This document shows positions 1,920 through 57,642 of a stretch of DNA of 64,000 nucleotides, piece by piece. A program made the translations under genes and the position numbers. How positions within the stretch are numbered: the first letter of the stretch is position 1; each line of letters begins with the position of its first letter. This stretch comes from Deltaproteobacteria bacterium (GTDB lineage: Bacteria; Bdellovibrionota; FAC87; UBA2466). The stretch lies in NCBI GenBank assembly GCA_900299195.1, contig OMIX01000089.1, forward strand, positions 2,892 to 66,891, read 5' to 3'. The notes under the pieces were generated by a model, which saw only the letters and a program-made list of their open reading frames with translations, searched no databases and was not told the origin of the DNA.

Positions 1920-2384
1920 CTAGCGAGAGTGGAGAGGGACTGTTAAGTTTGAACGGGCTACAAAAATTTGTTCCATTCGATCAAGGTCGGCCTCAAGATG
2001 GTCGGCCAAATGTTCCCAATCAGAATCGCCTGCTAATCTCAAATCCCTTAACTCTTTCCGCACCAATTGATGATCAGCTCTAAGCTCCCGAAAAACTTTT
2101 CTTAAATAACTTCTCCGCGTGGATAATAATCGAGAAGCATGGATCTCCGCTTTCAACACCTCAAACTTGGTTCTCCAACTTTCAATCTCCTCCGCCAGTT
2201 TTTTTTCCCGCTCTATCCGAGTTGAGTCAATGGGAGTTTCCTGTACCGGCTCATCCACTGATCGTTCACTCTCAAGATGAGAAACTTTACCCGTCACTAC
2301 GGCTAAACTAAGCAAAAATAGCCCCCCCATCACAAAAAACCACTTTACCCTTTTACGGAGTTCCGGCTTAAGCTCCATGGGCAC
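1920..2384 (-). CDS. Hypothetical membrane-anchored coiled-coil protein
   Basis: N-terminal TM segment (WFFVMGGLFLLSLAVV), charged and helical remainder. Overlaps the upstream ORF by 17 nt, so an operon is likely. Confidence 0.5.
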   Translation of the reverse strand: MPMELKPELRKRVKWFFVMGGLFLLSLAVVTGKVSHLESERSVDEPVQETPIDSTRIEREKKLAEEIESWRTKFEVLKAEIHASRLLSTRRSYLRKVFRELRADHQLVRKELRDLRLAGDSDWEHLADHLEADLDRMEQIFVARSNLTVPLHSR

Positions 2385-3003
2385 TCTCAGAAGGTGTTAT
2401 GTAACCAAATGCTCCAATTTTTGGGGGCATCATTCTGAGTTTGAATTTACTTCGACCACTTAACCACTGAATGAGTCTCTCTTTCACTTGAATTTCAGAA
2501 AGCCAATGAAAATCTTTTTCCCATCTCTTGACTATTTTTTCTTGTGACTTTTTGCTGAACTGATTCTTAAGAGTCCCCATCAATTTAGGTTCAGCCACAA
2601 AAACTAAATCAAGATTACCTTCTCTCTTTCTCCCTTTTTCCACCCAATCCACAACTTTCTTGCAGGAAACAACAGCTAAATGCCTCTGCGGTTTTTCTTT
2701 ATTGCTATAACTGTGTCGAGGCGTTGCAGTTTGATGTCCCCCTCGGGCAAATGTTTTTGAATCAAACACTCTACCGGGCCGATCCGAAATTAGATCAGAC
2801 CCTTTCGCCTTACCCATGGGAAATTTCCAAGTTTTAATCGAGTTGAGTGTTTGCCCTTGGGCACTCCACTCGTAAACTTTCCCTTGAGTTCTATCCATAA
2901 TGACCACCCAAGTTTTGTTCTCTTGTTTTCTATTCATTCCAAAAGTGCTGCGCAATTCAACGCCCTGATGAGTTTTCTTCCTCGACATATTCACCTCGCT
3001 CAA
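2368..3003 (-). CDS. Hypothetical basic protein
   Basis: 211-aa ORF, Lys/Arg-rich, no clear motif. Confidence 0.45.
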   Translation of the reverse strand: MSEVNMSRKKTHQGVELRSTFGMNRKQENKTWVVIMDRTQGKVYEWSAQGQTLNSIKTWKFPMGKAKGSDLISDRPGRVFDSKTFARGGHQTATPRHSYSNKEKPQRHLAVVSCKKVVDWVEKGRKREGNLDLVFVAEPKLMGTLKNQFSKKSQEKIVKRWEKDFHWLSEIQVKERLIQWLSGRSKFKLRMMPPKIGAFGYITPSESAHGA

Positions 3004-24057: not shown

Positions 24058-25665
24058 TCAGGGGGTAGTGCTGCTCTTCTTAAAAATTAAGGAACGACTG
24101 CTGTTGTTTTTTATAAAATGATTCCCCTCAAAAGGTAATAAAGGTGATAATAAATTGAACGGACTAAGTCTTAACTCAATGGAATTGGCGGTCTCTCTGT
24201 TGCCAACGAGATAACGGTCTTTTTGATCTAAAAATAGAGCAATTCTTCCCGTATAAAAATCATAACTACCGCCTCGAAAGTCTTTGGCTGGCCAAAAGGA
24301 TTCGGTATGAATCATTCGTCCCACAAAATTCAATGGAGAAAATGGATTTTCCAAGTTGGAAGGTATTTTCTCAGCTGCGACTCCCACGTTAATTAACAAA
24401 TTATCAAAAGTATATGTACCGGAGAGAGACCCCACTGTAATTTTGTCGGTTGGAAGTTGAGGAAGTTTTGATTTCTGAAAGTAAAAAGTTCCCACCCTCC
24501 CAAAAAGTAGTGAATACCAAACCCCCTCGATAAAATCCTCATTAGCATTCGTAATTTCTAAGACCGCATCCATCTCGTTCACTTCAGTTAATGTGGGTTT
24601 GGCTAAGACAAAATGATTTGAATCTTCGGATAAAAAAACGGGGTCGTAGCGGTAAGTGAGAGCTTCTTGAGATTTAAAATCTCCAAAATAAAGTCTAAAC
24701 AAAGTTGAAAGCCCTATGGGTCCACCTTCGGTTTTTGGAGGCACTATAAAAAAATCTAAGTCAGCTGCTTGATACTCATTAAGCAACTCGTGATGAACAT
24801 ACCCTATGTAAGCGCCCTCCAACTTTCGAGGCTCGATAGTTCTTCTTTGGGAATGCTGGGGAAATTCAGAAGCGGTTGCGAAAAGTTGGGTATGAACCGA
24901 TGCATCCTCACTGGAAGTTTTTTTGTACTGACACGAACCACAGGTCATCCCAGATTCATTAATCAGACAATGCTGATTTTCATACCTACCAAAGAGATCT
25001 AGATTTTGGGTGTAGAAATTATAGGCTCCTGAGAAAAACAAGTTACGAACACAGTAATTGGTTTCCGTACATTGATTTGGGTTTTCAACTCCTATCTCGC
25101 CCACAATTTCATAGTCTGAAAAGGGATGGCCCGTTTTAGTCGTTTCTTGAATACTTCGATAAGTATAGAGCTGAAGCTTTTCTTTTTTGCCTGAGCAAAC
25201 TCCTTCATATTCTCCCCAAAGGGCATCTATCAGGGGATATTTCAGAGCCACTTTTCCATCTTTTCTTAAAATAAGTTCAGGGTGATCCGTAGTGAAGCTC
25301 GTTCGCAAAGTTCCTTTGAGCTCTTCTTCAGAAAACTTAGGAAAGGAAACACTAACCTCTTGATTGATTTGGTCAAAGACTAGCCAATCTCCATGAAGAT
25401 GAGCTGTATCAAAGTGAAAAGAAACATACTCCCGGCTTTTTAAATCACCAAAATAGAACTTGAGAAGCCCTAACCAACTGGAAGGCACTTCAGATTGCGG
25501 ATTAGCTACCAAATCCAAAGTGACATATTGGTCCCTCTGAATCGAATGATGACGAAGGACTCCAGTATATCGAAGTGAAGGAAGAGACGCTCCGGGAGAG
25601 GCAATAGTGAGCAACAATCCTAAAATAAATGATAGTTTGAATTGTTTTTGGAACGTCATTCTCAA
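24058..25665 (-). CDS. Hypothetical secreted protein (535 aa)
   Basis: Signal peptide (LLTIASPGASLPS), Cys-containing, no recognized domain. Confidence 0.5.
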   Translation of the reverse strand: MRMTFQKQFKLSFILGLLLTIASPGASLPSLRYTGVLRHHSIQRDQYVTLDLVANPQSEVPSSWLGLLKFYFGDLKSREYVSFHFDTAHLHGDWLVFDQINQEVSVSFPKFSEEELKGTLRTSFTTDHPELILRKDGKVALKYPLIDALWGEYEGVCSGKKEKLQLYTYRSIQETTKTGHPFSDYEIVGEIGVENPNQCTETNYCVRNLFFSGAYNFYTQNLDLFGRYENQHCLINESGMTCGSCQYKKTSSEDASVHTQLFATASEFPQHSQRRTIEPRKLEGAYIGYVHHELLNEYQAADLDFFIVPPKTEGGPIGLSTLFRLYFGDFKSQEALTYRYDPVFLSEDSNHFVLAKPTLTEVNEMDAVLEITNANEDFIEGVWYSLLFGRVGTFYFQKSKLPQLPTDKITVGSLSGTYTFDNLLINVGVAAEKIPSNLENPFSPLNFVGRMIHTESFWPAKDFRGGSYDFYTGRIALFLDQKDRYLVGNRETANSIELRLSPFNLLSPLLPFEGNHFIKNNSSRSLIFKKSSTTP

Positions 25666-25748
25666 GCTCCCAAAGGTCTCGGACAGAGTTCTAAAACATT
25701 TTGGGATTTAGATTCAACTTTAAAAAACTGAATAACAAGTTCTTAAAG

Positions 25749-26123
25749 CTAATGTGAGTTAGCTGCGCCTACACACTTGAGATCGGCTAATTCTCTAGGT
25801 CCTGCAAAAGTGGTTTCAGATAATTTTCCGTTCATATCCACTCCTGGAAGCTCCAGCTTAATCGTTGCAAAAAATCCTGCATCAGCCACACGTTGAGCTG
25901 TTCGACAATTTAAGAAGGCTTTTAACGTGTGGTCGGAGGGTTTGGGATATACAACGTTACATTTCATGTTTCCAAACTCGATATCCTCACCATTCACAGT
26001 AAGTTTAGCAGTTTGATGATTAGAGCTAACCTTGAGGTTCCATTTTCCACCACTGCAAAAAATAGGGGCTCCGAAAGAAAATTGAGATACGACCATGAAT
26101 CCCATTAACAAGTAAGTTTTCAT
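25749..26123 (-). CDS. Small secreted Cys-containing protein
   Basis: Signal peptide (LLMGFMVVSQFSFGA), 6 Cys in the mature part. Confidence 0.45.
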   Translation of the reverse strand: MKTYLLMGFMVVSQFSFGAPIFCSGGKWNLKVSSNHQTAKLTVNGEDIEFGNMKCNVVYPKPSDHTLKAFLNCRTAQRVADAGFFATIKLELPGVDMNGKLSETTFAGPRELADLKCVGAANSH

Positions 26124-26400
26124 AAGTACTCCTTAAAAAAGTTACCCCTTTCTAACAGAAAATAACACATTGCGCAACCTGCGCTTTAAGGAATGCTGAC
26201 CTTCCCCCTTAATTAGTGTCAGTTTATGGCTTTAATTACAGCTTACAAGAGCACCACGGCTACTCTTCAACCTTGGTACTGTGAAGGAAATTTTTTGAGA
26301 GCCTCAGCGTAGGCAGGAGTAAGTCGTAAAAAATAATGTCCATTAATATTTTGCACTTCGCCCTACTCCAATGCTCAACATGACAAATTGTTTTTTGTAA

Positions 26401-27645
26401 TCAGTGCTGCGCTGAATGTTCTGTAGCGAGTCTAGCAAAAGATTTCAAACAACGTCGGCTGCCCAAATTAAAGACAAGACTTTCATCCCGAGTTGGCTCC
26501 CCACTGACAAATTCATTAAGATTCTCTTTGTCGAGTAAGCCGGTATTTTGATAAGCCTTGCCGAAGGTCTCGGGAAATGCTTTAGCCACGGCATGAACTC
26601 GTTTGACGGGATCTACTTTAAAAGCACTTTCTAAAAACCGTTCCTTTTCCTTATCCAACTCCGTAGTTGGCGGAAGGAGCTCCCTGAGTTTGGAATTGAC
26701 GAAAGATTCGAAGTCGGTTGCTGCCCGCTTGTTCGAAAGTAATAGCCGAGTGCCCCTTGAGAATAAATCATTAGAATCGACTGAAGAGTTTTTAAATTGA
26801 ATCTGGAAATACATTAACAATAGCGGTTTTCTAAAAAGTTCATGACTGATGGATTGCGCCTGTGAAAACAAATCCTCTGAAGGAACATTTGAGAGCCTTT
26901 GTTGGTAATGTAAACGCTCCGGTGCTGCATAGGACGGAGTAAACATGATGACCTTGGATGTTCCAGTCTCAGAGACACTATCAAGATCCCCAAGCCTTGC
27001 TTGGGCACCCATTATGTTATTACTTTTTAAAAGAAAGTAATTGGAAGGCTTAATGTCTCCATGAACAAGATTATTTGAGTGAAGCGCAAGAAGAGCCCCT
27101 TGACCAGCAAGAAATAAAAGATCAGAACGAATAATTCTTTGGTCTTCAGATAGCCTTTCTGGTTTTTTTGTCTCAAAGGTTCCTTTGGCAAGTGTGGAAC
27201 GGACGACGAATTCAGAACCTTCATATGCGTGCTGCTTCAACCACACTTCTTGAGTGGGTTCATAATTCAGAAAGAAACTCGGATTTGAATCCATTAACTT
27301 GCGATGTTGCGGGCTTCCGTAAAACTGTAAGCTATCTTTACCAGACAGTATTAAGTTGTTCTTTTGATCGCGTATCGGCCTGGCGAATTTCATCGCTTGG
27401 ATCTGTTTGGATCGAGCGCATCCCGAAAGGCACTCCACCTGGTAAACCTCGCCGGAACTACCCTTTCCTAGTATCTTAATAATTTTATACTCGCGATTAT
27501 CTTTATCCACCCAAACTTCCCCGGGTTGGACGGCGTGAATAGTTTTGTAGCACCCAACGAGAAAAAAGAATGTTAAAATAATCCCGAAGCCGAACTCTCG
27601 ACCTTTTTCTAGCGACCGTGCAGTCTTGTGGAGCTCAGGGCGCAT
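26401..27645 (-). CDS. Hanks-type (eukaryotic-like) Ser/Thr protein kinase with an N-terminal lipoprotein-type signal
   Basis: GKGSSGEV (G-loop), AMKFA (VAIK Lys), HGDIKPSN (catalytic loop, non-RD), DLD (DFG-like), SYAAPE (APE). N-terminus has an n-region plus h-region ending in lipobox LVGC. Confidence 0.75.
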   Translation of the reverse strand: MRPELHKTARSLEKGREFGFGIILTFFFLVGCYKTIHAVQPGEVWVDKDNREYKIIKILGKGSSGEVYQVECLSGCARSKQIQAMKFARPIRDQKNNLILSGKDSLQFYGSPQHRKLMDSNPSFFLNYEPTQEVWLKQHAYEGSEFVVRSTLAKGTFETKKPERLSEDQRIIRSDLLFLAGQGALLALHSNNLVHGDIKPSNYFLLKSNNIMGAQARLGDLDSVSETGTSKVIMFTPSYAAPERLHYQQRLSNVPSEDLFSQAQSISHELFRKPLLLMYFQIQFKNSSVDSNDLFSRGTRLLLSNKRAATDFESFVNSKLRELLPPTTELDKEKERFLESAFKVDPVKRVHAVAKAFPETFGKAYQNTGLLDKENLNEFVSGEPTRDESLVFNLGSRRCLKSFARLATEHSAQH

Positions 27646-28411
27646 AATATCCCAGTACGGCTCTTGTCATATCAAAGTCACGTTCATTTTCGATAAATAA
27701 TATTTTGCGATATTCCGTAGCATCCTCAATCATATTATTCATGGGATCTGCGATAAGATTGCTTTTTGGAAGATAAACAAAGACATGGGAAAATGTTGGT
27801 TCGTTTTTTTCTTCTCGAGCATCTGCAACTCTTAGCTCTGCTTCGATCCCAAGTTGTTTAAGAATTTTATATAAAATGGTGGCCTTGTGGCGGCAAACTC
27901 CTCTATCTTTGACACGGGAATCAAGAAAACTCGAGGCAAAACGAACTGTGTTGGGATGGAGAACCAAAGTAGACCACACGATTTGACCACCTTTTCCATC
28001 ATCACTGGGATCTCCTCCGTAGAGTTTGCTAATAAACATCTTCAATATTTGTTTTAGGTTTTGACCTGAATACTTCAGTAACTCTCTTTCTTCCGCTGTT
28101 AAGTGAGAAACAATATTGTCCCAATCAAAGTAAATACCAAACCCGATGTGAGGTGCCTGACGAGTAAACGACTGGATTTGGTGTATCAAAATGGGAATAG
28201 CTCCAACAGCGGTTAAAGTACCGCCTAATCCGACAATTCTTGTTAAAGTTTGCCGACAGGAGTAGCGAGTAGCAGTTGACTGGATCGAATCCGAAAGGAA
28301 TACAGTTCTCTCGCCTTTTATTTTTTCGATATCTGAAATTTCCAAGCCTAGGGCGCCGATATTTGTTAGACAGATACAAATAAATACGATACTTCCACGG
28401 TATCTCAGCAT
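27635..28411 (-). CDS. Membrane-anchored transglutaminase-like superfamily cysteine protease/transglutaminase domain protein
   Basis: Two N-terminal TM segments. Core GVCRHKATILYKILKQLGIEAELRV (Cys), SHVFVYL (His), IADPMN (Asp) matches the TGase-like Cys-His-Asp pattern. Overlaps the kinase start by 11 nt. Confidence 0.65.
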   Translation of the reverse strand: MLRYRGSIVFICICLTNIGALGLEISDIEKIKGERTVFLSDSIQSTATRYSCRQTLTRIVGLGGTLTAVGAIPILIHQIQSFTRQAPHIGFGIYFDWDNIVSHLTAEERELLKYSGQNLKQILKMFISKLYGGDPSDDGKGGQIVWSTLVLHPNTVRFASSFLDSRVKDRGVCRHKATILYKILKQLGIEAELRVADAREEKNEPTFSHVFVYLPKSNLIADPMNNMIEDATEYRKILFIENERDFDMTRAVLGYYAP

Positions 28412-28556
28412 ACCAAAGCCTTTCTTTGCCCCATTTCTTCTTGGTTAATGCAAATGGGATTCCATGAAAGAGAGATTAAAAAAGCTTTTTTTTCATAGTT
28501 TGAGTTGATCGGGGATAAGACAGAGATTTTTACCAAAGCATTAAAATCGAAAGAGT

Positions 28557-29303
28557 TTACTTTGATGGGACAGATCCGCTTTGTTGGATTGGAATAAGAT
28601 AGACATGGGTATAACCTAGTTCTTGAAGTTGCTTTTTAAACGAGCGGGAAGTTTCTGAGTCGCGAATAAGAATAATTTTATCCCGGTGGGTAATCATTCC
28701 ATGGGTAGCAGTACTGATAGCTTTTTTTAATTGGGTTCGACTCCAATTTTCACTCTTTGCCTTTTCTATCATTTCGCTATGGATCGATTGGGCTCGTTTA
28801 AAATCGGGAGGATTTGATACTTCAATTTCGATCGATTCTTTTAGGGTGATTAAGCTTGGAATTTCTTGGGAAATAGGAAATCCGCTCGCCTTCGAAATAG
28901 GGATGAGATGATTGTTGAGTACGTCCGAACGATCCAGAAGAACTAAGGGGCTAGGGGGGTTCTTAAAAAAGAACATGACATCTAAATCGCTTTTTTGTTC
29001 GGGAGAGTATCCGTAACTGAAATGGGTTCTGCTTCCAAAAAGCACCATCGCCTCAACATCACTAAAGTCTGGGTTGTTTTTGAAGATATCTATGAGCTCA
29101 TTGAGTTGGTTTTGGCTCATACCCATCGGGGTGGGAATGCCCTGATATCGCTTGGCTTCGAAGTTAAGAAGCTCACGGCAGTTAGTTTTGGGAATGGCAA
29201 GAGAGTAATGGCACACAAGCCCAAATGTCATAATAATAGACAGAGCTATATGTTTTTTTACAGTATTCATCGTTTTCTGACTCAATTCCAAATGCCAAAA
29301 CAT
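28557..29303 (-). CDS. Signal-peptide-bearing nucleotidyltransferase-fold (Pol-beta superfamily) protein
   Basis: Signal peptide (ALSIIMTFGLVCHYSLA). NTase motif LFGSRTHFSYGYSPEQKSDLDVMFF (hG[GS]x9-13DhD). 248 aa. Confidence 0.5.
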   Translation of the reverse strand: MFWHLELSQKTMNTVKKHIALSIIMTFGLVCHYSLAIPKTNCRELLNFEAKRYQGIPTPMGMSQNQLNELIDIFKNNPDFSDVEAMVLFGSRTHFSYGYSPEQKSDLDVMFFFKNPPSPLVLLDRSDVLNNHLIPISKASGFPISQEIPSLITLKESIEIEVSNPPDFKRAQSIHSEMIEKAKSENWSRTQLKKAISTATHGMITHRDKIILIRDSETSRSFKKQLQELGYTHVYLIPIQQSGSVPSK

Positions 29304-46876: not shown

Positions 46877-48751
46877 ATGTGTGGAATCATCGGTTATATA
46901 GGTTTTCAAGATCCTAAAGGGATTCTTTTGGATGGACTTAAACGGTTGGAATACCGAGGATACGATTCTGCCGGAATTGCTATTCTTGAGGGAAATAAAA
47001 CTCTCTTATTCCGTTCTGAAGGTAGAATACAAAAATTGGAAAGTAAGCTGACTCAAGAGCACTTTCAAGGGCATTTGGGAATAGGGCATACTCGTTGGGC
47101 TACTCATGGAGCCCCTACTGAAAACAATGCTCACCCCCATCAAGCTGGCCCCATCACTTTAGTCCACAATGGAATATTGGAAAACTACTTAGACCACAAA
47201 CTTAATCTACAAAAAAACAAAGTTTCTTTCTCGAGTGATACCGACACTGAAGTGATTGCCCACCTCTTTCACCAAGAAATTCAATCGGGAATATCTCTCA
47301 AAGATGCGACCTTCAAAATTTTGCCTACCCTGAAGGGATCTTATGCTTTTGTTGTTATTCATGAAAATGAGCCTGATGTAGTAATAGGCACTGCTCAAGG
47401 AGCTCCGCTAATTATTGGACTAGGAGAGAAAGAGACTTTTCTAGCTTCTGACGTGCAAGCTATTTTGCATCGAACCAATAAAGTCATTTATCTCGAAGAG
47501 GGTCAAGTCGCCGTTTGCAAAAATAATCAAGTCGAGCTTTTTTCTCGAGAGGGTAAAAAACTCGTCCCTCAAATAAAAACTCTACAATGGTCAGCGGAAC
47601 AAATGGAAAAAGCTGGCTATCGACACTACATGCTCAAGGAAATCCACGAGCAATCCCAGGCCATTGCCAACACCATCTCGGGCCACATGGAATCCGTAAG
47701 TGGCACTATTCAAATTCCTGAGATCCTGAAAATCAAAGACAAGCTTAAGACCCTTAACAGAATCTCTATTGTTGCCTGTGGAACTGCAAGACATGCAGGA
47801 CTTGTAGGAAAATATTATTTTGAAAAACTTTCAAGAATCTCAACCGACGTCGATTTTGGATCCGAGTTTAGATATCGACAACCCATCTTAGATAAAAACT
47901 CGTTAACTATTTTAATTTCTCAATCAGGCGAAACAGCAGACACTTTGGCTGGACTTAGAGAGTCAAAATCTCAAGGAGTAGCCACCTTATCCATCTGTAA
48001 TGTGAGAGAAAGTTCTCTGGCTCGAGAATCGGATTTGGTTCTTTACACCAATGCAGGCCCCGAAATTGGAGTAGCTTCCACGAAAGCCTTCACCACGCAA
48101 TTAACCATGCTTTACATGTTGGCGGTTCAGCTAGGAGAAATTCGAGGCACCATTACCAAGGAATATGCCAAAGAATTAGCAACCGATTTGATGCATCTCC
48201 CCCACCTGGTAGACCAAACTTTAAGGCTCGAAAATAAAGTTGAAGAGATTGCACAAAGTTTTCAAGACCATCCGTTTTTCTTCTACATGGGGAGAGATTG
48301 CTTGTACCCCATTGCTCTAGAAGGAGCGCTAAAACTTAAAGAGATCAGTTACGCACATGCAGAGGGGTATCCAGCTGGCGAATTAAAACATGGACCTATT
48401 GCTTTGATTGATCGGCAAGCTGCTGTGATTGTTCTTGCGCCTCGAAATAAAGCGCCGGAAACCCAAACGGATCTGAATGATTTTGATCACAATATTCTGT
48501 TTGATAAAATTTTAAGTAATCTTCAACAAGTAAAAGCTCGAGGGGGACAAATTTTGACAGTGGGAAGTGAAGAAGACTCTCTTTTTCCGAAAGAATCTAA
48601 ATATTTTATAGGTCTACCGAAATGTTCTTGGGCACTTAATCCTATTTTGACCACCCTGCCACTTCAGTTGTTGGCTTATCACATTGCCTCTCTAAGAGGA
48701 ACTGACGTCGATAAACCCAGAAACCTAGCCAAAAGTGTTACGGTAGAATAA
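46877..48751 (+). CDS. glmS: Glutamine--fructose-6-phosphate aminotransferase (isomerizing)
   Basis: N-terminal MCGIIGY nucleophile, two SIS domains, conserved C-terminus ...VDKPRNLAKSVTVE. Confidence 0.95.
   Translation: MCGIIGYIGFQDPKGILLDGLKRLEYRGYDSAGIAILEGNKTLLFRSEGRIQKLESKLTQEHFQGHLGIGHTRWATHGAPTENNAHPHQAGPITLVHNGILENYLDHKLNLQKNKVSFSSDTDTEVIAHLFHQEIQSGISLKDATFKILPTLKGSYAFVVIHENEPDVVIGTAQGAPLIIGLGEKETFLASDVQAILHRTNKVIYLEEGQVAVCKNNQVELFSREGKKLVPQIKTLQWSAEQMEKAGYRHYMLKEIHEQSQAIANTISGHMESVSGTIQIPEILKIKDKLKTLNRISIVACGTARHAGLVGKYYFEKLSRISTDVDFGSEFRYRQPILDKNSLTILISQSGETADTLAGLRESKSQGVATLSICNVRESSLARESDLVLYTNAGPEIGVASTKAFTTQLTMLYMLAVQLGEIRGTITKEYAKELATDLMHLPHLVDQTLRLENKVEEIAQSFQDHPFFFYMGRDCLYPIALEGALKLKEISYAHAEGYPAGELKHGPIALIDRQAAVIVLAPRNKAPETQTDLNDFDHNILFDKILSNLQQVKARGGQILTVGSEEDSLFPKESKYFIGLPKCSWALNPILTTLPLQLLAYHIASLRGTDVDKPRNLAKSVTVE
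48718..48751 (+). repeat. 34-bp direct repeat copy A (authentic glmS 3-prime end)
   Basis: cagaaacctagccaaaagtgttacggtagaataa. Matches 49967-50000 at 33 of 34 positions. Confidence 0.85.
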
Positions 48752-48800
48752 GAGGCTTTGCTTTTATTTAGCGTTCAGCTTTTCCTGAATATACTAAAAG

Positions 48801-49922
48801 TTACTCATAACCCAGACTTTTTAGTTTTAAAGTAACCCTCTGGATAAACCAGTTTCCCAACTTAATCCCTGGTTCTTCAATTAAAACATGGATGAAACTT
48901 GCCACACTGAAAGACACTGCTACCAACAAAATAAAATGAACCAAACTTCCAAAGTTAGACCCAGTTAAGTACTGGGTAAGACCTATTTTTTGAAACAAAT
49001 AGATAATGGCAAAATGAAATAAATATATTCCATAGCTCTGCCTGCCTAGTTTCACAGTTACAAAATTTACGAAAATAACGACTTGATGTAGGGACAGGAA
49101 CATTACGAATATTGAGATAGCTATAGCATCAACAACCCATTGAGGCATAAACAATGGTGATCCAAAGGGTAAGTAAGACCGGAAAACAGTGATTATAAAG
49201 ATGAATCCACCAATCCAGTAAAATCTAACCTTTCTGATCCCGTTTTTTAAAAAACAAAAAGTGATAATTCCGATTAGAAATACCGGAAACTGCGCCAGGA
49301 AATTTAAATAACAAAAATCTCTAACCAGATATTGCTGATTAACAGGATAATTAAATAAACCCATGATGAAAGGCTCACTCATCTTAAGTATCCATAGACT
49401 TGAGAAGAACATTAAAATTGCAAACACGGGAGACCTAACTTCTGATAACAAAAAGGGCACAAGCAAATAGAAAAAAGCTTCATTTGCTATCGACCATCCT
49501 CCAGGTACCAACGAGTTTATTGTTAAAGGATTAAATCCGTGCAAAAATGTTGCGGTAAGAAAAATGTCCCATCTATTTACTCCCATAGGAGCTGAATATC
49601 TAGGTTTCAATCCATTCAAAATAAGAAAAATCACTATCGCTAGATAAAACAGCGGGGCAATCCTAAAAACCCTTTTTAGATAAAAGTTTAATTTGGGGAA
49701 TCTTTCACTAGCCATTTTTGAATACCAGGACATGCAAATAGCAATAGCAGATACAATGAAAAACAATTGGACTCCTAGCATTCCTTTTTTCATTATTCGA
49801 TTTAATAATTCATTTGTGGGAACAGCATATTGACTAGAATGGACAAGAACGACAGCCAAAATGGCTAATCCCTTAAGAGCATCAAGATAGGGATACTTTT
49901 TTATATCCATTGAATAACCCAT
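48801..49922 (-). CDS. Acyltransferase family 3 membrane protein (OatA/OafA-like O-acyltransferase)
   Basis: About 10 TM helices, 373 aa, acyltransferase-3 topology. Flanked by the glmS-end direct repeats. Confidence 0.7.
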   Translation of the reverse strand: MGYSMDIKKYPYLDALKGLAILAVVLVHSSQYAVPTNELLNRIMKKGMLGVQLFFIVSAIAICMSWYSKMASERFPKLNFYLKRVFRIAPLFYLAIVIFLILNGLKPRYSAPMGVNRWDIFLTATFLHGFNPLTINSLVPGGWSIANEAFFYLLVPFLLSEVRSPVFAILMFFSSLWILKMSEPFIMGLFNYPVNQQYLVRDFCYLNFLAQFPVFLIGIITFCFLKNGIRKVRFYWIGGFIFIITVFRSYLPFGSPLFMPQWVVDAIAISIFVMFLSLHQVVIFVNFVTVKLGRQSYGIYLFHFAIIYLFQKIGLTQYLTGSNFGSLVHFILLVAVSFSVASFIHVLIEEPGIKLGNWFIQRVTLKLKSLGYE

Positions 49923-49966
49923 TCTTACTTAGAGTTGCTGTAGCTAAAGTAGATAGGAAGTAGCGC

Positions 49967-50000
49967 CAGAAACCTAGCCAAAAGTGTTACGGTGGAATAA
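49967..50000 (+). repeat. 34-bp direct repeat copy B (displaced remnant of the glmS 3-prime end, encodes ...RNLAKSVTVE*)
   Basis: cagaaacctagccaaaagtgttacggtggaataa. Sits between acyltransferase-3 and wzt. Confidence 0.85.
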
Positions 50001-50002
50001 CT

Positions 50003-50800
50003 TTAAGCGACTTGAGGGAGGTCTTTTTCCTTGCTGTAAAGATCTAACATCTCACTTGCAGATCCCAAGGCAATTACTTTGCCTTGCTTCATGTAAACTC
50101 CTCGATTACAAAGCTTGTTAACGGCTTTTTCATCGTGACTCACAAACAAAATGGTACGACCGCTATTAGCTACAGAACGCATTTTATTTATGCATTTGTT
50201 TTGAAAGGCTGTATCTCCAACTGCTAACACTTCATCTACAAACAAAATAGGTTGATCCAAATGAGCTGCGACAGAAAACGCCAATCGAACGTACATCCCT
50301 GAGGAGTAATGCTTAATTGGAGTATCGATAAATTTTTCGACTTCAGAAAAATCTACAATGGCATCAAACTTAGCTTGAATTTCTCTTCTTCTCATTCCTA
50401 AGATCGCACCATTGAGAAAAATATTTTCTCTTCCTGAAAGCTCAGCATGAAATCCGGTTCCCACTTCCAACAAAGCCGAAGATTTTCCCCTGATGACAGC
50501 TCTACCCTCAGTAGGAAAAGTGATTCGAGAGAGAATTTTTAAAAGGGTCGATTTGCCACATCCGTTGCGACCAATCAATCCTACAATCTCACCCGGCTGC
50601 ACAGAGAAAGAGACATCTTTTAACGCCCAAATATAATCGTTGGAATTTTCGTTTTGCTTATTCCCTTTTAACATTCCTATCGGTCCATTCTCTCTAAGAT
50701 TTTTAGAAAACCTATTAAGAACTTCTCTGATTGAAGTCGTACCGATGACACCCAGGCGATACTGTTTGGAAATATTTTGAACTTCAATTATTGGCTTCAT
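50003..50800 (-). CDS. ABC transporter ATP-binding protein, polysaccharide/O-antigen export type (Wzt/KpsT-like)
   Basis: Walker A GRNGCGKST, signature YSSGMYVRLAF, Walker B ILFVDE. Downstream of the ABC-2 permease. Confidence 0.85.
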   Translation of the reverse strand: MKPIIEVQNISKQYRLGVIGTTSIREVLNRFSKNLRENGPIGMLKGNKQNENSNDYIWALKDVSFSVQPGEIVGLIGRNGCGKSTLLKILSRITFPTEGRAVIRGKSSALLEVGTGFHAELSGRENIFLNGAILGMRRREIQAKFDAIVDFSEVEKFIDTPIKHYSSGMYVRLAFSVAAHLDQPILFVDEVLAVGDTAFQNKCINKMRSVANSGRTILFVSHDEKAVNKLCNRGVYMKQGKVIALGSASEMLDLYSKEKDLPQVA

Positions 50801-50803
50801 AAA

Positions 50804-51691
50804 TTAAATAATATCAACAAAGTCTCTTTCTACTCGGTTAAACATCATCAACCCCAACACCACAGAAACCATAGAAACGATTAAGGATACGAATAAATAT
50901 GACACTTCCAAGGCAGAGGTCCCTAAAAAAACATGACGAAACGTATCTACCACTGCAATGAGGGGGTTAAAAACCGTTAAATAATAGAAACGTTCTGGAA
51001 TTTTACTTACAGGATAAACCACTGGGGTCGCATAAAACCATAACTGAATAAAAAACCCTAAGACATGAGTTAGGTCTTTATATTTCACCGTAATAGCTGC
51101 AAACATCAGCCCTAAACCTAAACACATCGCAGAAGTAATGAGGAGAAGCAAGGGAGTCAAAGCCACGATCTTAATGAGATCGGGATGAATGATATTTCCT
51201 GCCGCAGTAAATAATTTATAAAAAATAAGCAACCCCATAAAAACTAGGAGTTGAGTAAAAAAAATCAATGATTTTGAAATCACCACAGAAAGAGGCATTA
51301 CAAGTCTAGGAAAGTAAACCTTTTGAAAAATATAAGCATTGGCAATTAACACATCCGCAGTTTGTTGAAAGGCAACTGAGAAATAGCCCCAAATGACTAA
51401 CCCGCTAAAATAAAAAAGAAGGTGAGGAATTTCATCCGTTGACATCCCTCCTAGTTTTCCAAAAACGGCAGTTAAAACTCCTGACATCATAATAGGTTGT
51501 ACGATGTACCAAATGGGTCCAAGAATGGTTTGGCGATAACGAGCTATAAACTCTTTTTGTACAAAGAGAGTAATCAAATCTCTAAATTGCCACAACTCTA
51601 CCCAATCGATTCTGAACCACTGATAATTGGCGTCAATTACCGTAGTTGAATTGAGACGGTCCGAGTAGACCTTTTTCAAATATGCGCGCAT
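50804..51691 (-). CDS. ABC-2 type transporter permease (Wzm/KpsM-like)
   Basis: Six TM helices, 295 aa, 3-bp gap to the ATPase gene. Confidence 0.8.
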   Translation of the reverse strand: MRAYLKKVYSDRLNSTTVIDANYQWFRIDWVELWQFRDLITLFVQKEFIARYRQTILGPIWYIVQPIMMSGVLTAVFGKLGGMSTDEIPHLLFYFSGLVIWGYFSVAFQQTADVLIANAYIFQKVYFPRLVMPLSVVISKSLIFFTQLLVFMGLLIFYKLFTAAGNIIHPDLIKIVALTPLLLLITSAMCLGLGLMFAAITVKYKDLTHVLGFFIQLWFYATPVVYPVSKIPERFYYLTVFNPLIAVVDTFRHVFLGTSALEVSYLFVSLIVSMVSVVLGLMMFNRVERDFVDII

Positions 51692-51802
51692 GAGCCAAGT
51701 TTGTTGTTATTAGGAAATTAAGAAGATTCATTTATTATCCTACATTTAGCGAGATTGTATAAGCTAAAATTTGATTTGCAGCGAGGCAACGTGCCTAACA
51801 CA

Positions 51803-54034
51803 CTAAGGCCACAAACGCGCCATGGCCTGAGAAGCCCCAGCTATTCCGCTGAGAACAAGTTGGATGCCATCTAAAATAATGCGGTTGGCCGCAGAGTTCC
51901 CTTGAGTAAAACTGACTGTTTTTAGATGGTTTCCATCATTAATAAAATTACCATTAGATTGATACCTTTTGATCAACATTTGATTGGATGCAGTTCCAAC
52001 TATCAAAATCTGACCAGCTGAATCAACTTCAATATCTTTGGCTTCTGTACTTATAGTATCGGTGATGAGACCTGAGCTTCCAAACGTAGTGTCCAAACCC
52101 AGGTTGGTATTCAGCCTGATCACCGCTAGTTGGGAACCGTTAGTTCCAGCGAGTAAAATTTTTCCAGAAGCATTAAAGGCGATTGGATTGACTGTACCTT
52201 GACCAAATTGAGACAGAGTCAAAGTAGGTGGCAAATTAGCCGGATCAAATCGGGTCACTGACATTTTTGAATCAGAAGAAGTGCCCCCTATCACAATATT
52301 TCCAGAGCCGTCCTTCTTAATGCGGGTGGCCAAAGCAGAAAAGGTAGGGTTCACCAGGTTATTAGGATCCATGGCCCCGGTGACTTTCGGCACAAAGATA
52401 AAATTAAATTTGTTCCCTACCAGAACCAAGTTTCCAACATTAGTAGTTTCAATTCCAATGAGCTCGTCATCTAATGCCATCAGATCTCGGGTTTGTACTG
52501 GAAAATCAGAATTGAGTACCAGATCATTACCCATCAAATTAAGTTTTCCATATAACCAATCCTTCCCCGAACTTCCTCCAAAATCGGCCCAGCCAGCAAA
52601 ATAAACATCGGACCCCTCAATCACCATGGAGTTAATACGCGAGGAGTTACCTATGGTATCACTCACATTGAACTCAGACTTAACGGCACCCGTATCTCTG
52701 TCTACCAAAGCTAAATAGCCCCTCTCAACTGAAGAAACGATTTTGTATCCAGCAATCAAATAGCCCTCAGAAATTTTAATGATCGACAAGATTTCTCCAG
52801 GTGAAAGAGCCAACTTGCCATCACTACTAAAAGCAGTGTCCAACACTAAGTGAGTGACGTTAAGGGTAGCCGTAGCGTTAGTTAATCCAGTCGAGCTTCC
52901 AGTGAGAGTCACGCTAGTTACTGCGATAGAGGTGACTTTAAAGAACAGTGCCGCTGAAGGCGACGCACTGCTGATCCCCACCGAAGTTCTAATGTTACTT
53001 CCACTTTGACAATCACTTAAGCTTGTAAAAAACTGACCGTTCCCGCCTGAAGATAAGCTCACGGTCTTATTGTTCTCACTAAACGCATTCCCCAACCCAT
53101 CTCTCGATGTGATAGTGAACGAGCCACTACACACACCGACGTTTAAGGTGGCGGGTGCGGAATCAAAAGTTAACGCGGTAGCCGTTCGGGTCACAGCGAT
53201 AGTGGCTGTTCCATTTGAAACTATCGGATCACTTACTGCCAAAGAAGAAGTGATGACTCTCGAATTGGTATTTATGCTTGTGACTTTAAAAGAAAGATTA
53301 CCCGTTGTGGTATTATTCTCAGGAATGCTGACTGAGGTCGTTTCATTAACACAATCATTCCCAGTATAAAATTTGGCTTCGAAATTAACTCCTAAGCTAA
53401 TCTGGGTTTCAGTTCCTCGGGTAAATGGGTTACCCAGTCCATCGATACTTGTCACCGTAAGTCCACTCGCACAAACACCAACATTAGCCGAATTGGGATT
53501 CCCATTAAACCTAAGGGCCGTAACTACCCTCTTAACCTCCGAGCGGCCTATCTCGCTCGAAAATCCACGACTGCTAGCAGAAAAAGCGACAGGATTGCTG
53601 GTAGCTTGATTGTAATCGTAATTAGTTGGCTTATAGTAAATCAGTTTTCGACTTTCCCCAGCGTTCATGGGAATTGAAGTCATACTCGCGCCAGAACAAT
53701 TGGAAGTAGTATAAAAATTCCCCCCTTGCCCCGTGGCTTCGAGATTCACAACTATAGAACTTTTAAGTCGAACTTCAATAGAGCTTCCTCGATTCACTGC
53801 AGTTGCCACGCTCACATCCACGGGCTCACAGAGGGTCAGTCCGAGTTCCGCTTTTCTTGATTTGATAAGAATACGACTGGGTAACAATGCCGGATCCTCT
53901 GAAAAATTGAGTGCCTGCTTTTGGGGAGCTTTTTCCTCATCAAAAGACATGAAACCAAACTGACAAGAGGTTAAGACAAAGGTAAGAAGAAGAGCTAAAA
54001 GACGATTTAGGAATGTTAAAAACGTGCTTTTCAT
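51803..54034 (-). CDS. Large surface lipoprotein with tandem Ig-like (about 100 aa) repeats and a Gly/Asn-rich C-terminal repeat region
   Basis: Lipobox LTSC. Repeated blocks (ALRFNGNPNSANVGVCASGLTVTSIDGLGNPF / ALTFDSAPATLNVGVCSGSFTITSRDGLGNAF). Thr/Ser/Asn-rich. Directly upstream of wzm/wzt. Confidence 0.55.
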   Translation of the reverse strand: MKSTFLTFLNRLLALLLTFVLTSCQFGFMSFDEEKAPQKQALNFSEDPALLPSRILIKSRKAELGLTLCEPVDVSVATAVNRGSSIEVRLKSSIVVNLEATGQGGNFYTTSNCSGASMTSIPMNAGESRKLIYYKPTNYDYNQATSNPVAFSASSRGFSSEIGRSEVKRVVTALRFNGNPNSANVGVCASGLTVTSIDGLGNPFTRGTETQISLGVNFEAKFYTGNDCVNETTSVSIPENNTTTGNLSFKVTSINTNSRVITSSLAVSDPIVSNGTATIAVTRTATALTFDSAPATLNVGVCSGSFTITSRDGLGNAFSENNKTVSLSSGGNGQFFTSLSDCQSGSNIRTSVGISSASPSAALFFKVTSIAVTSVTLTGSSTGLTNATATLNVTHLVLDTAFSSDGKLALSPGEILSIIKISEGYLIAGYKIVSSVERGYLALVDRDTGAVKSEFNVSDTIGNSSRINSMVIEGSDVYFAGWADFGGSSGKDWLYGKLNLMGNDLVLNSDFPVQTRDLMALDDELIGIETTNVGNLVLVGNKFNFIFVPKVTGAMDPNNLVNPTFSALATRIKKDGSGNIVIGGTSSDSKMSVTRFDPANLPPTLTLSQFGQGTVNPIAFNASGKILLAGTNGSQLAVIRLNTNLGLDTTFGSSGLITDTISTEAKDIEVDSAGQILIVGTASNQMLIKRYQSNGNFINDGNHLKTVSFTQGNSAANRIILDGIQLVLSGIAGASQAMARLWP

Positions 54035-56715: not shown

Positions 56716-57642
56716 ATGGTAAAACTACGGGGTTTTCGTATGGCACATTCTGAAAAATTTGAATTCAAAAAGCTCACTCCAAGAGCCCGCCCTGTTCTAA
56801 AATGGGCGGGTGGGAAGTCGCAACTACTCCCCCAACTTATTCCCTTTTTCCCTACCCAATTTAATCGTTATATTGAGCCTTTTCTGGGGGCTGGTTCCGT
56901 CTACTTTTCTTTAGATCCCAAATGCCCCGCCTTAATTAATGATGCCAATCCCGAACTTTATGAACTTTACCTTGTTTTGAGAGATCATCCGGCAGCTCTC
57001 TGCCGATTATTAGATAAATACTCAAGGAAATACTCAGAACAATTTTATTATGACCTTAGAGCTTCTCAACCCAGAAACCCCATCTCAAAAGCAGCACGTT
57101 TTATTTTTCTCAACAAGACAGGTTTTAATGGACTCTATCGCTTAAATTCAAAAGGCCACTTTAATGTTCCTTTTGGAAAGAGGGAAAAATGTCCCTTACT
57201 TTACGATGAGGAAAATATTAAACGAGTGTCGGAGCGTTTAAAAAAAAGTCAGATCAAAAATATGGATTTTGAAAAAGTCATTCGCTTAGCCAAAAAGGGA
57301 GATTTTGTTTATTGCGATCCCCCCTATTCCCCACTATCGAGAACTTCATCTTTCAACAGCTACACAGCAGGTGGTTTTTCTGACCAAGAGCAAAATCGCC
57401 TAAAAGAGGCCTGCGCAGAAGCAGCTCACCGAGGAGCTTTTGTGGCTGTTTCCAACTCTTCGGCCCCAATTATTTTAGAACTTTTTAAAGATTGGAAGAT
57501 ACACCTGATTAAAGCTCGACGAAGCATTAACTCTAAGAGCCATTTGCGCGGACCCATTCATGAGGTTTTGACGACCTCCTGGGACTTTAAAAAAAATCAC
57601 TTTAATTCAAATCATCCGGGCCGACCACTTTTCCATCTGTGA
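56716..57642 (+). CDS. Dam-family (D12 class) N6-adenine DNA methyltransferase
   Basis: LKWAGGKSQLL, EPFLGAGSV (FxGxG), DPPY catalytic motif. No adjacent restriction endonuclease. Confidence 0.85.
   Translation: MVKLRGFRMAHSEKFEFKKLTPRARPVLKWAGGKSQLLPQLIPFFPTQFNRYIEPFLGAGSVYFSLDPKCPALINDANPELYELYLVLRDHPAALCRLLDKYSRKYSEQFYYDLRASQPRNPISKAARFIFLNKTGFNGLYRLNSKGHFNVPFGKREKCPLLYDEENIKRVSERLKKSQIKNMDFEKVIRLAKKGDFVYCDPPYSPLSRTSSFNSYTAGGFSDQEQNRLKEACAEAAHRGAFVAVSNSSAPIILELFKDWKIHLIKARRSINSKSHLRGPIHEVLTTSWDFKKNHFNSNHPGRPLFHL

Follow-up and report, generated by a model that had tools for sequence, protein, structure and literature searches.

Analysis of a 64,000-nucleotide stretch of contig OMIX01000089.1 from an uncultured freshwater Deltaproteobacteria bacterium (the whole stretch is hereafter called the window) indicated that a 1,249-bp segment between glmS and a wzt-like transporter gene is a recent single-gene insertion in a lipopolysaccharide (LPS)/polysaccharide cluster. 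The inserted gene encodes a membrane O-acyltransferase, and it is bracketed by two copies of the glmS terminus. The insertion is regarded as recent because the tree of Wzt proteins places the window species among relatives in which the site is empty. Taken as a whole, the explanation that a cassette integrated recently from a circular molecule, left att-like repeats on both sides and is still segregating as a polymorphism was given a probability of about 0.5. An earlier annotation made from the sequence alone (the original prediction) had read the same locus as an attTn7-like insertion scar. The features of the locus, with their positions in the window, are as follows.

46877-48751, plus strand: glmS (glutamine-fructose-6-phosphate aminotransferase), full length, 624 aa, with the Pfam domains SIS, GATase_6 and GATase_7
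48717-48751, plus strand: repeat copy 1 (attL-like), the codons (P)RNLAKSVTVE and the TAA stop of the functional glmS, with the A variant at 48745
48752-48800, no strand: 3' spacer of 49 nt from the glmS stop to the acyltransferase stop, where the new DNA starts
48801-49922, minus strand: acyltransferase family 3 (AT3) membrane O-acyltransferase, 373 aa, PF01757, AT3 domain only, no SGNH domain
49923-49965, no strand: 5' spacer of 43 nt from the acyltransferase start to repeat copy 2
49966-50000, plus strand: repeat copy 2 (attR-like), a non-coding orphan glmS terminus, with the G variant at 49994
50003-50800, minus strand: wzt-like ABC transporter ATPase, 265 aa, PF00005, intact, directly upstream of the acyltransferase gene on the same strand
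50804-51691, minus strand: wzm-like ABC-2 permease, PF01061, first gene of the wzm-wzt(-acyltransferase) unit

The two copies of the glmS terminus form a 35-nt direct repeat in which 34 of the 35 positions are identical and the spacing is 1249 nt. The consensus of the repeat is CCAGAAACCTAGCCAAAAGTGTTACGGT[A/G]GAATAA, and copy 1 written out is CCAGAAACCTAGCCAAAAGTGTTACGGTAGAATAA. Copy 1 represents the last 11 codons and the stop codon of the full-length glmS. The presence of the repeat on both sides of the acyltransferase gene agrees with the original prediction, which gave its length as 34 nt. As that prediction also stated, the single change between the copies is synonymous: the A of copy 1 is replaced by G in copy 2 at the 29th base, giving GTA and GTG, both of which encode valine. 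The exactly identical stretch shared by the copies is 28 nt. The edges of the repeat are sharp, since no similarity is found to the left of 49966 and identity ends precisely at the stop codon. Copy 2 is followed by CT and then by the wzt stop codon, 2 nt away, and comparison with relatives (below) identifies this arrangement as the ancestral glmS-wzt junction. The description of copy 2 as still in frame has no meaning, because a stop codon lies six codons upstream, a start codon is absent and copy 2 is part of no gene; it is a non-coding relic. Analysis of 100 dinucleotide-preserving shuffles revealed no match to the repeat at three or fewer mismatches. Across the whole 64-kb window no other direct repeat of at least 22 nt within 8 kb was found besides the one at the glmS end, and no other duplication of this type was present.

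Comparison of the glmS-wzt junction in related genomes, which the original prediction had proposed as a check, gave a positive result. Five related species have the same gene order, with the stop codons of glmS and wzt 1-6 nt apart and nothing between them. Since the stops were this close in the ancestral arrangement, a new gene can enter only if one of the two gene termini is duplicated. The nearest GTDB representative (L001) and a JGI contig from the same species (L014) read ...ACGGTGGAGTAA-T-TTAGGC..., with one base between the stops; the 624-aa glmS product of L001 is 83% identical to that of the window. The contigs L015-L019, L020/L021 and L022, with Wzt identities of 77-86%, carry the gene for a DUF5122 protein, wzm and wzt, followed by convergent glmS and an epimerase gene, and synteny around wzm is kept in L014-L022. 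On its right, copy 2 continues into sequence collinear with the empty sites of L001, L014 and L022, and its G variant is also found in L001 and L014. Across relatives the Wzt orthologues are 73-86% identical, all with a length of 265 aa. No filled glmS-wzt site was found elsewhere among the relatives compared.

In the Wzt neighbour-joining tree the window species falls in a clade with 73% bootstrap support, the other sampled members of which are empty, and the outgroup lineages are empty as well. As both sister and outgroup lineages are empty, a single gain explains the data most parsimoniously. Between species these 35 nt of glmS show 2-7 synonymous changes, whereas the two copies in the window differ by one (97% identical); therefore the duplication is much younger than the species splits. 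The opposite history, in which the filled state would be ancestral and the relatives would have lost the gene, was considered highly improbable, as was an assembly artefact. Deletion between the 28-nt repeats would leave a clean site that is indistinguishable from one never occupied, which is the strength of the ancestral reading. However, the gene would have to be lost independently three times or more on the Wzt tree, and an orphan copy under no constraint would not stay 97% identical while species diverge by 2-7 synonymous changes.

Independent assemblies carry the same structure. A k=119 contig from another sample (L003) has the same arrangement, with 0 differences from the window at 48071-52185. 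Contig L004 crosses both repeat copies and contig L008 crosses copy 2 into the acyltransferase gene, and both are identical to the window. An assembly artefact was excluded because the independent k=119 contig and further contigs agree with the window, with three contigs besides L003 crossing the junctions.

To the left of 48070, comparison of the window with L003 revealed nine single-nucleotide polymorphisms (SNPs) in 5.3 kb (1.7 SNP/kb). The tract 48071-52185, which includes the insert, wzt and wzm, is free of SNPs between these two haplotypes, where about 5-7 would be expected. This pattern suggests a recent recombinational sweep or import of the filled allele, and homologous recombination may have spread that allele recently. 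The same tract is one of the points in favour of another origin, namely homology-facilitated illegitimate recombination or template switching from a close donor in which the acyltransferase gene already lay downstream of glmS. The left join would then have been made by homology in the glmS terminus, and the right join, located 35 nt upstream of where the recipient's glmS stops, would have been illegitimate and would have given rise to the duplication. Such an event would account for identity stopping at the stop codon, where coding conservation ends, and the A at 48745 could be the donor allele, as GTA is common among relatives; the host-like codon usage of the cargo and the recent import suggested by the SNP-free tract fit as well. 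However, no genome was found with the acyltransferase gene after glmS in another right-hand context, all five relatives being empty, and no donor was found, the nearest homologue being 53% identical. A join upstream of the homologous anchor, which yields a duplication instead of a deletion, is also an unusual outcome. Illegitimate recombination was judged unlikely on this balance.

The ends of contigs in two further assemblies bear on the presence of a second allele. The contigs of the ENA assembly ERZ11848522 are named in the SPAdes style; the one with wzm-wzt (L009) ends at 49966, and a separate contig of 1,331 bp (L004) corresponds to window positions 48690-50020. The ends of L004 lie 55 nt outside the A/G site and the insert end (48690 = 48745 - 55; 50020 = 49965 + 55), giving overlaps of 55 nt. 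For ERZ23495462, the ends are 48744, immediately left of the A/G site, in the 51.8-kb scaffold L012 and 49966 in the wzm-wzt scaffold L010. Such break points and overlaps are predicted for a de Bruijn graph at k=55 when the reads also include an empty allele with G at the variable site, and they would fit its coexistence in at least one metagenome. On its own, an exact repeat of 28 nt is too short to collapse such a graph. The predicted empty allele would read glmS...ACGGTG-GAATAA-CT-wzt, with the junction ...GATAAAC-CCAGAAACC...GGTGGAATAA-CTTTAAGCG, which can also be written GATAAAC + CCAGAAACCTAGCCAAAAGTGTTACGGTGGAATAA + CTTTAAGCG. The Logan contig L008 passes 49966 without a break, and the empty allele is to be read with this caveat. 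Overall, the break points suggest that the insertion is probably polymorphic for presence and absence within the species.

The glmS terminus is the canonical target of Tn7, in which TnsD binds the conserved end of the gene and insertion takes place about 20 bp downstream from its stop codon with a 5-bp target duplication (PMC2918618). At the window locus the new DNA starts at 48752, the base directly after TAA, and the duplication is 35 nt. A point 20 bp past the glmS stop would fall within the intact wzt. Neither terminal inverted repeats nor repeats resembling TnsB sites were found that pair 48752-48850 with 49870-49965. The original prediction had stated that no transposase or integrase remains; this was borne out and extends to the 64-kb window, as a Pfam search of its 55 open reading frames (ORFs) of at least 150 aa revealed no tnsA/B/C/D, tniQ, transposase, integrase, resolvase, rve or Phage_integrase gene. 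The search for Tn7-like tns genes was thus carried out on the 64-kb window only, and it gave none. A genuine insertion at the glmS 3' end, with the gene end regenerated by a direct repeat, therefore stood, while the attTn7/TnsD framing did not, given the insertion point, the 35-bp duplication and the lack of terminal inverted repeats and tns genes.

A scar of Tn7 or of a CRISPR-associated transposon (CAST) was rejected on the same grounds of insertion point, duplication length, ends and genes. The locus resembles Tn7, Tn7-like elements and CASTs in that the same last glmS codons mark the site and cargo is inserted with glmS not inactivated; it differs in a distance of 0 bp instead of about 20 bp from the stop, a duplication of 35 bp instead of 5 bp, and the absence of ends and of tnsABCD (PMC2918618). 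The only feature in common with attTn7 is the involvement of the same conserved glmS codons, and this reflects no more than the extreme conservation of the peptide. TnsD-directed transposition into attTn7 followed by decay would explain why it is the conserved glmS end recognised by TnsD (PMC2918618) that was duplicated, but with the insert at +1 after the stop, a 35-bp duplication, no terminal inverted repeats and no tnsA/B/C/D or rve genes in the window, it is scarcely credible.

Other classes of elements were compared in the same manner. An insertion sequence (IS), a miniature inverted-repeat transposable element or a composite transposon was rejected, as terminal inverted repeats are absent and the duplication is 35 nt against the 2-15 bp of such elements. 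An RNA element or a tRNA as the target was likewise rejected, since the hits of Rfam and ARAGORN are limited to two tRNAs near 29.4 kb, with none close to the locus. Integron cassettes are similar to the insert in their size of about 1.2 kb, single promoterless ORF, use of a resident promoter upstream and presumed circular intermediate. However, the 3' spacer here has no attC-like palindrome or hairpin and no intI or attI lies nearby, and integrons do not duplicate 35 bp of target; an integron cassette was rejected.

The class that the locus matches most closely is that of elements integrated by tyrosine recombinases at gene 3' ends. The attL/attR-like repeats include the 3' end of the target gene, and the left copy completes glmS. 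Sharp repeat edges together with repeats of a gene 3' end match the attL/attR anatomy of circular-element integration. Elements that retain attL and attR and have lost their integration genes are known as CIMEs (PMC5704250). The window locus shares with CIMEs the bracketing of foreign DNA by repeats of a 3' terminus, the regeneration of the gene by the left repeat, the lack of an integrase inside and, as the predicted empty site would suggest, possibly a presence/absence polymorphism. It differs in consisting of one gene with flanks of 49 and 43 nt and no trace of a larger element, and in having the glmS coding end as target instead of tRNA, tmRNA or the usual protein-gene targets. Structures in which a cargo-only insertion lies between att-like copies of a gene terminus are already known, and the target is unusual here.

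Our analysis tentatively favours, at a little under even odds, a minimal cassette that entered by Campbell-type integration with the enzyme supplied in trans. A small circular DNA would have carried the acyltransferase cassette together with its own copy of the glmS terminus, and one reciprocal crossover would have taken place between this copy and the chromosomal glmS terminus. This exchange would have occurred in the repeat's first 28 nt, so that the element-type A passed to the left copy and the chromosomal G to the right copy; this position is placed from the A/G pattern, because the left variant is absent from the predicted empty allele and the right variant is the chromosomal one. The left copy would then complete the essential glmS, and the right copy would remain as an orphan still abutting wzt. 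Since no recombinase is present in cis, the enzyme would have acted in trans, either one of the tyrosine-recombinase type or RecA on short homology. The product would be a CIME-like, cargo-only element with attL/attR-like flanks, and homologous recombination, whether in the flanks or between the repeats, could spread the cassette or remove it. The circle junction predicted from this scheme is GGAAGTAGCG + repeat + GAGGCTTTGC (GTAGCG-repeat-GAGGC).

A larger island or prophage that carried its own integrase, inserted at the glmS 3' end and was reduced by deletions to one cargo gene with attL and attR, would also be a CIME. Tyrosine-recombinase elements are characterised by attL/attR-like repeats that restore the 3' end of a gene, CIMEs keep both att sites without integration genes (PMC5704250), and tyrosine integrases occur from 253 nt downstream of glmS in the proviral contigs L028, L092 and L101. 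This origin was nevertheless considered quite improbable. The non-coding flanks of 49 and 43 nt contain no pseudogene fragments, so that both sides would have been trimmed almost exactly to the gene, and no related larger element occupies the glmS-wzt site in any relative. The alternative of "decayed or minimal insertion" in the original prediction is accordingly narrowed: a minimal cassette fits better, and decay is unlikely because flanks of this size are too short to contain what would remain of a larger element.

Several observations weigh against integration of a cassette from a circle and its continued segregation. No recombinase gene is present in the insert or in the 64-kb window, no dyad symmetry or recombinase-site signature was found in the 35 nt, and no significant structure was found in the flanks of the repeat. 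A circular form of the cassette was not seen in the contig-level data. No second example of a glmS-end cassette was found. The homologues P0002, P0003, P0004 and P0006 (on L024, L006, L005 and L023, respectively) have no glmS fragment beside them and no similarity to the cassette flanks, and an orphan copy of the glmS terminus was found at none of the 84 IMG/VR loci with a glmS terminus. For the polymorphism, no assembled contig of the empty allele in the window species was present in the collections, where the empty path would be a contig of 82 nt. The coverage of the insert contig (16.6x) is not below that of the flank (15.7x), and the empty allele may therefore be rare; the samples with the break points may also derive from the same reads. 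Finally, the A/G difference might have arisen later by point mutation, and a 35-bp target duplication made in situ would then be an equally good fit.

Such an in-situ duplication would have begun with a linear acyltransferase fragment joined into a staggered break, with nicks at 48716|48717 and 48751|48752, 35 nt apart, and the gaps then filled. A transposase, a casposase or Cas1-type integration or a repair accident could have been the agent, with selection keeping glmS and wzt intact. Direct duplication of the target, sharp edges and the absence of a recombinase in cis are all expected from it, the near-identity of the copies to the host glmS codons follows automatically, and the event is apparently unique, with no recurrence in relatives or elsewhere. 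Yet 35 bp is far above the duplications known for transposases (2-15 bp), and the insert has no terminal inverted repeats. As the two copies would have been identical at first, the A/G difference would moreover need an extra mutation within 70 nt, although the rest of the 1,249-bp insert is invariant between haplotypes. In-situ duplication was consequently rated as rather unlikely, though it deserves more weight than any of the other alternatives to integration from a circle.

Searches for recurrence of the structure and for its origin included cellular homologues and viral contigs. The nearest acyltransferase homologues (49-53% identical) occur among glycosyltransferase genes, beside an IS fragment or in other contexts. 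As the contexts of the closest homologues have no glmS piece, a family of glmS-targeted acyltransferase cassettes was rejected. The 84 IMG/VR contigs with the codons for NLAKSVTVE and the stop represent full glmS genes or glmS genes at contig edges, and since none has a second copy, a phage attP carrying the glmS terminus was rejected as a precedent. A phage origin of the cassette was also rejected, as no IMG/VR contig has the cassette junction or a close homologue and phage AT3 genes are at most 32% identical. The literature on duplicated glmS ends yielded nothing relevant. It is improbable that the cassette is a living member of an undescribed class of minimal, recombinase-less, single-gene elements that home to the universally conserved glmS terminus through a 35-bp att core and a recombinase in trans; if it were one, coexisting empty and filled alleles might reflect active excision and integration, which is similarly improbable.

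Analysis of viral contigs also revealed other genes next to glmS. The IMG/VR contigs L028, L092 and L101 encode a tyrosine integrase (Phage_integrase, E 2e-29), whose gene occupies the opposite strand at 253-1383 nt past the glmS stop. This placement indicates prophages integrated beside the glmS end, so that elements of the integrase type do make use of the glmS neighbourhood. Their att sites are undefinable because the other prophage end lies outside the contigs, and a search of the phage collection with the L028 integrase gave nothing. In L045 and L091 an IS30-like transposase gene directly follows glmS. In four further IMG/VR contigs (L050, L093, L098 and L105) an unrelated 376-aa Acyl_transf_3 protein (PF01757, E 6e-11) is encoded in convergent orientation about 1.2-2.3 kb downstream of glmS; these contigs have no duplicated glmS end, and the proximity may be a coincidence or a recurrent neighbourhood.

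The cargo was characterised as a membrane O-acyltransferase, and its identification in the original prediction as a minus-strand family 3 enzyme of a horizontally mobile type is supported. The 373-aa Acyl_transf_3 protein is the sole ORF between the repeat copies. It matches PF01757 over the full length, with an E value of 1.2e-26 and a score of 94 bits against a cut-off of 31, covering profile positions 2-324 of 326. A total of 3,657 homologues were found, many of them named OafA/YrhL. In the protein collection searched, the acyltransferase cluster has one member and so does the Wzt cluster. The exact glmS product of the window is unrecorded in this collection, while the wzt and acyltransferase products of the same 67-kb contig are present; the missing glmS record is probably due to a different called start codon or an indexing gap.

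Base composition and codon usage of the acyltransferase gene were analysed, as also proposed in the original prediction. Its total GC content of 0.347 is the lowest of the 55 ORFs (0.418 +/- 0.022), whereas neither its GC content at third codon positions (GC3) nor its synonymous-codon usage departs from the normal range. Because GC3 and codon usage are ordinary and the neighbouring wzm is similarly AT-rich, composition is weak evidence of foreign origin. No significant hairpin or terminator was found in the 49-nt spacer (z-scores of -0.9 and -1.25 against shuffles), and no promoter-like site was found in the 43-nt spacer.

The genes next to the insert suggest a role for the enzyme. Together, wzm and wzt encode a Wzm/Wzt-type glycan exporter. 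The acyltransferase gene starts 80 nt downstream of wzt in the same orientation as wzm-wzt, and no promoter-like or terminator-like site was found between wzt and the acyltransferase gene. For this reason the acyltransferase gene is probably now the distal gene of a wzm-wzt operon, transcribed by read-through from wzt. From gene order and orientation only, we infer that the enzyme may O-acylate the glycan exported by Wzm/Wzt. The surrounding 16 kb contains genes for epimerases, a GT2 glycosyltransferase, a GHMP kinase, HAD phosphatases and a KdsA-like DAHP_synth_1 protein, by which it is assigned to sugar-nucleotide and LPS-core functions. Strain-variable or phage-borne AT3 acetyltransferases include Oac of Shigella phage Sf6, Salmonella OafA and Legionella Lag-1. 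The window enzyme resembles these O-antigen acetyltransferases in being an AT3 membrane enzyme that is variably present and tied to surface-polysaccharide genes; it differs in being placed directly behind wzm-wzt and not on a prophage or transposon.

The locus illustrates how an accessory gene can be slotted between two convergent genes that abut and of which one is essential, with damage to neither, when a second copy of the terminus is brought along or created. The same safe-harbour glmS end is used as by Tn7 with a different signature, and insertions at the glmS end should not be assumed to be Tn7. The addition of an O-acyltransferase gene behind a Wzm/Wzt exporter in a Bdellovibrio-like freshwater lineage, which appears to be polymorphic, makes strain-level variation of a surface antigen plausible. 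A dedicated recombinase, if found, would define a second glmS-homing system, and a class of glmS-homing cassettes, if real, would represent a non-Tn7 route to the same safe-harbour site. At present the locus is a well-documented but ordinary strain-specific gene gain, with no evidence yet of a recurring system.

Analysis of the window also revealed four features outside the insertion. Upstream of wzm, the gene for a large DUF5122 beta-propeller-type protein (51803-54034, minus strand) is hypervariable. Two haplotypes differ there by 16 SNPs clustered at 53039-53204, and in two assemblies contig breaks fall at about 52920-52947. The protein is 743 aa long in the window compared with 985-1000 aa in related species, and it is probably subject to diversifying selection as a surface protein. 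An ORF at 56716-57642 (plus strand) encodes a D12-class N6-adenine DNA methyltransferase (PF02086, E 4e-58). None of its neighbours is an obvious restriction partner, and it is possibly an orphan Dam-like methylase. At 26401-27645 (minus strand) a eukaryotic-type protein kinase domain (Pkinase, E 4e-13) occurs in a run of ORFs without Pfam match (24058-29303). An ORF at 2368-3003 (minus strand) matches Host_attach (PF10116, "protein required for attachment to host cells") and baeRF family 12; the Host_attach match and the "Deltaproteobacteria" label of the nearest metagenome-assembled genome hint at a Bdellovibrio-like predatory lineage.

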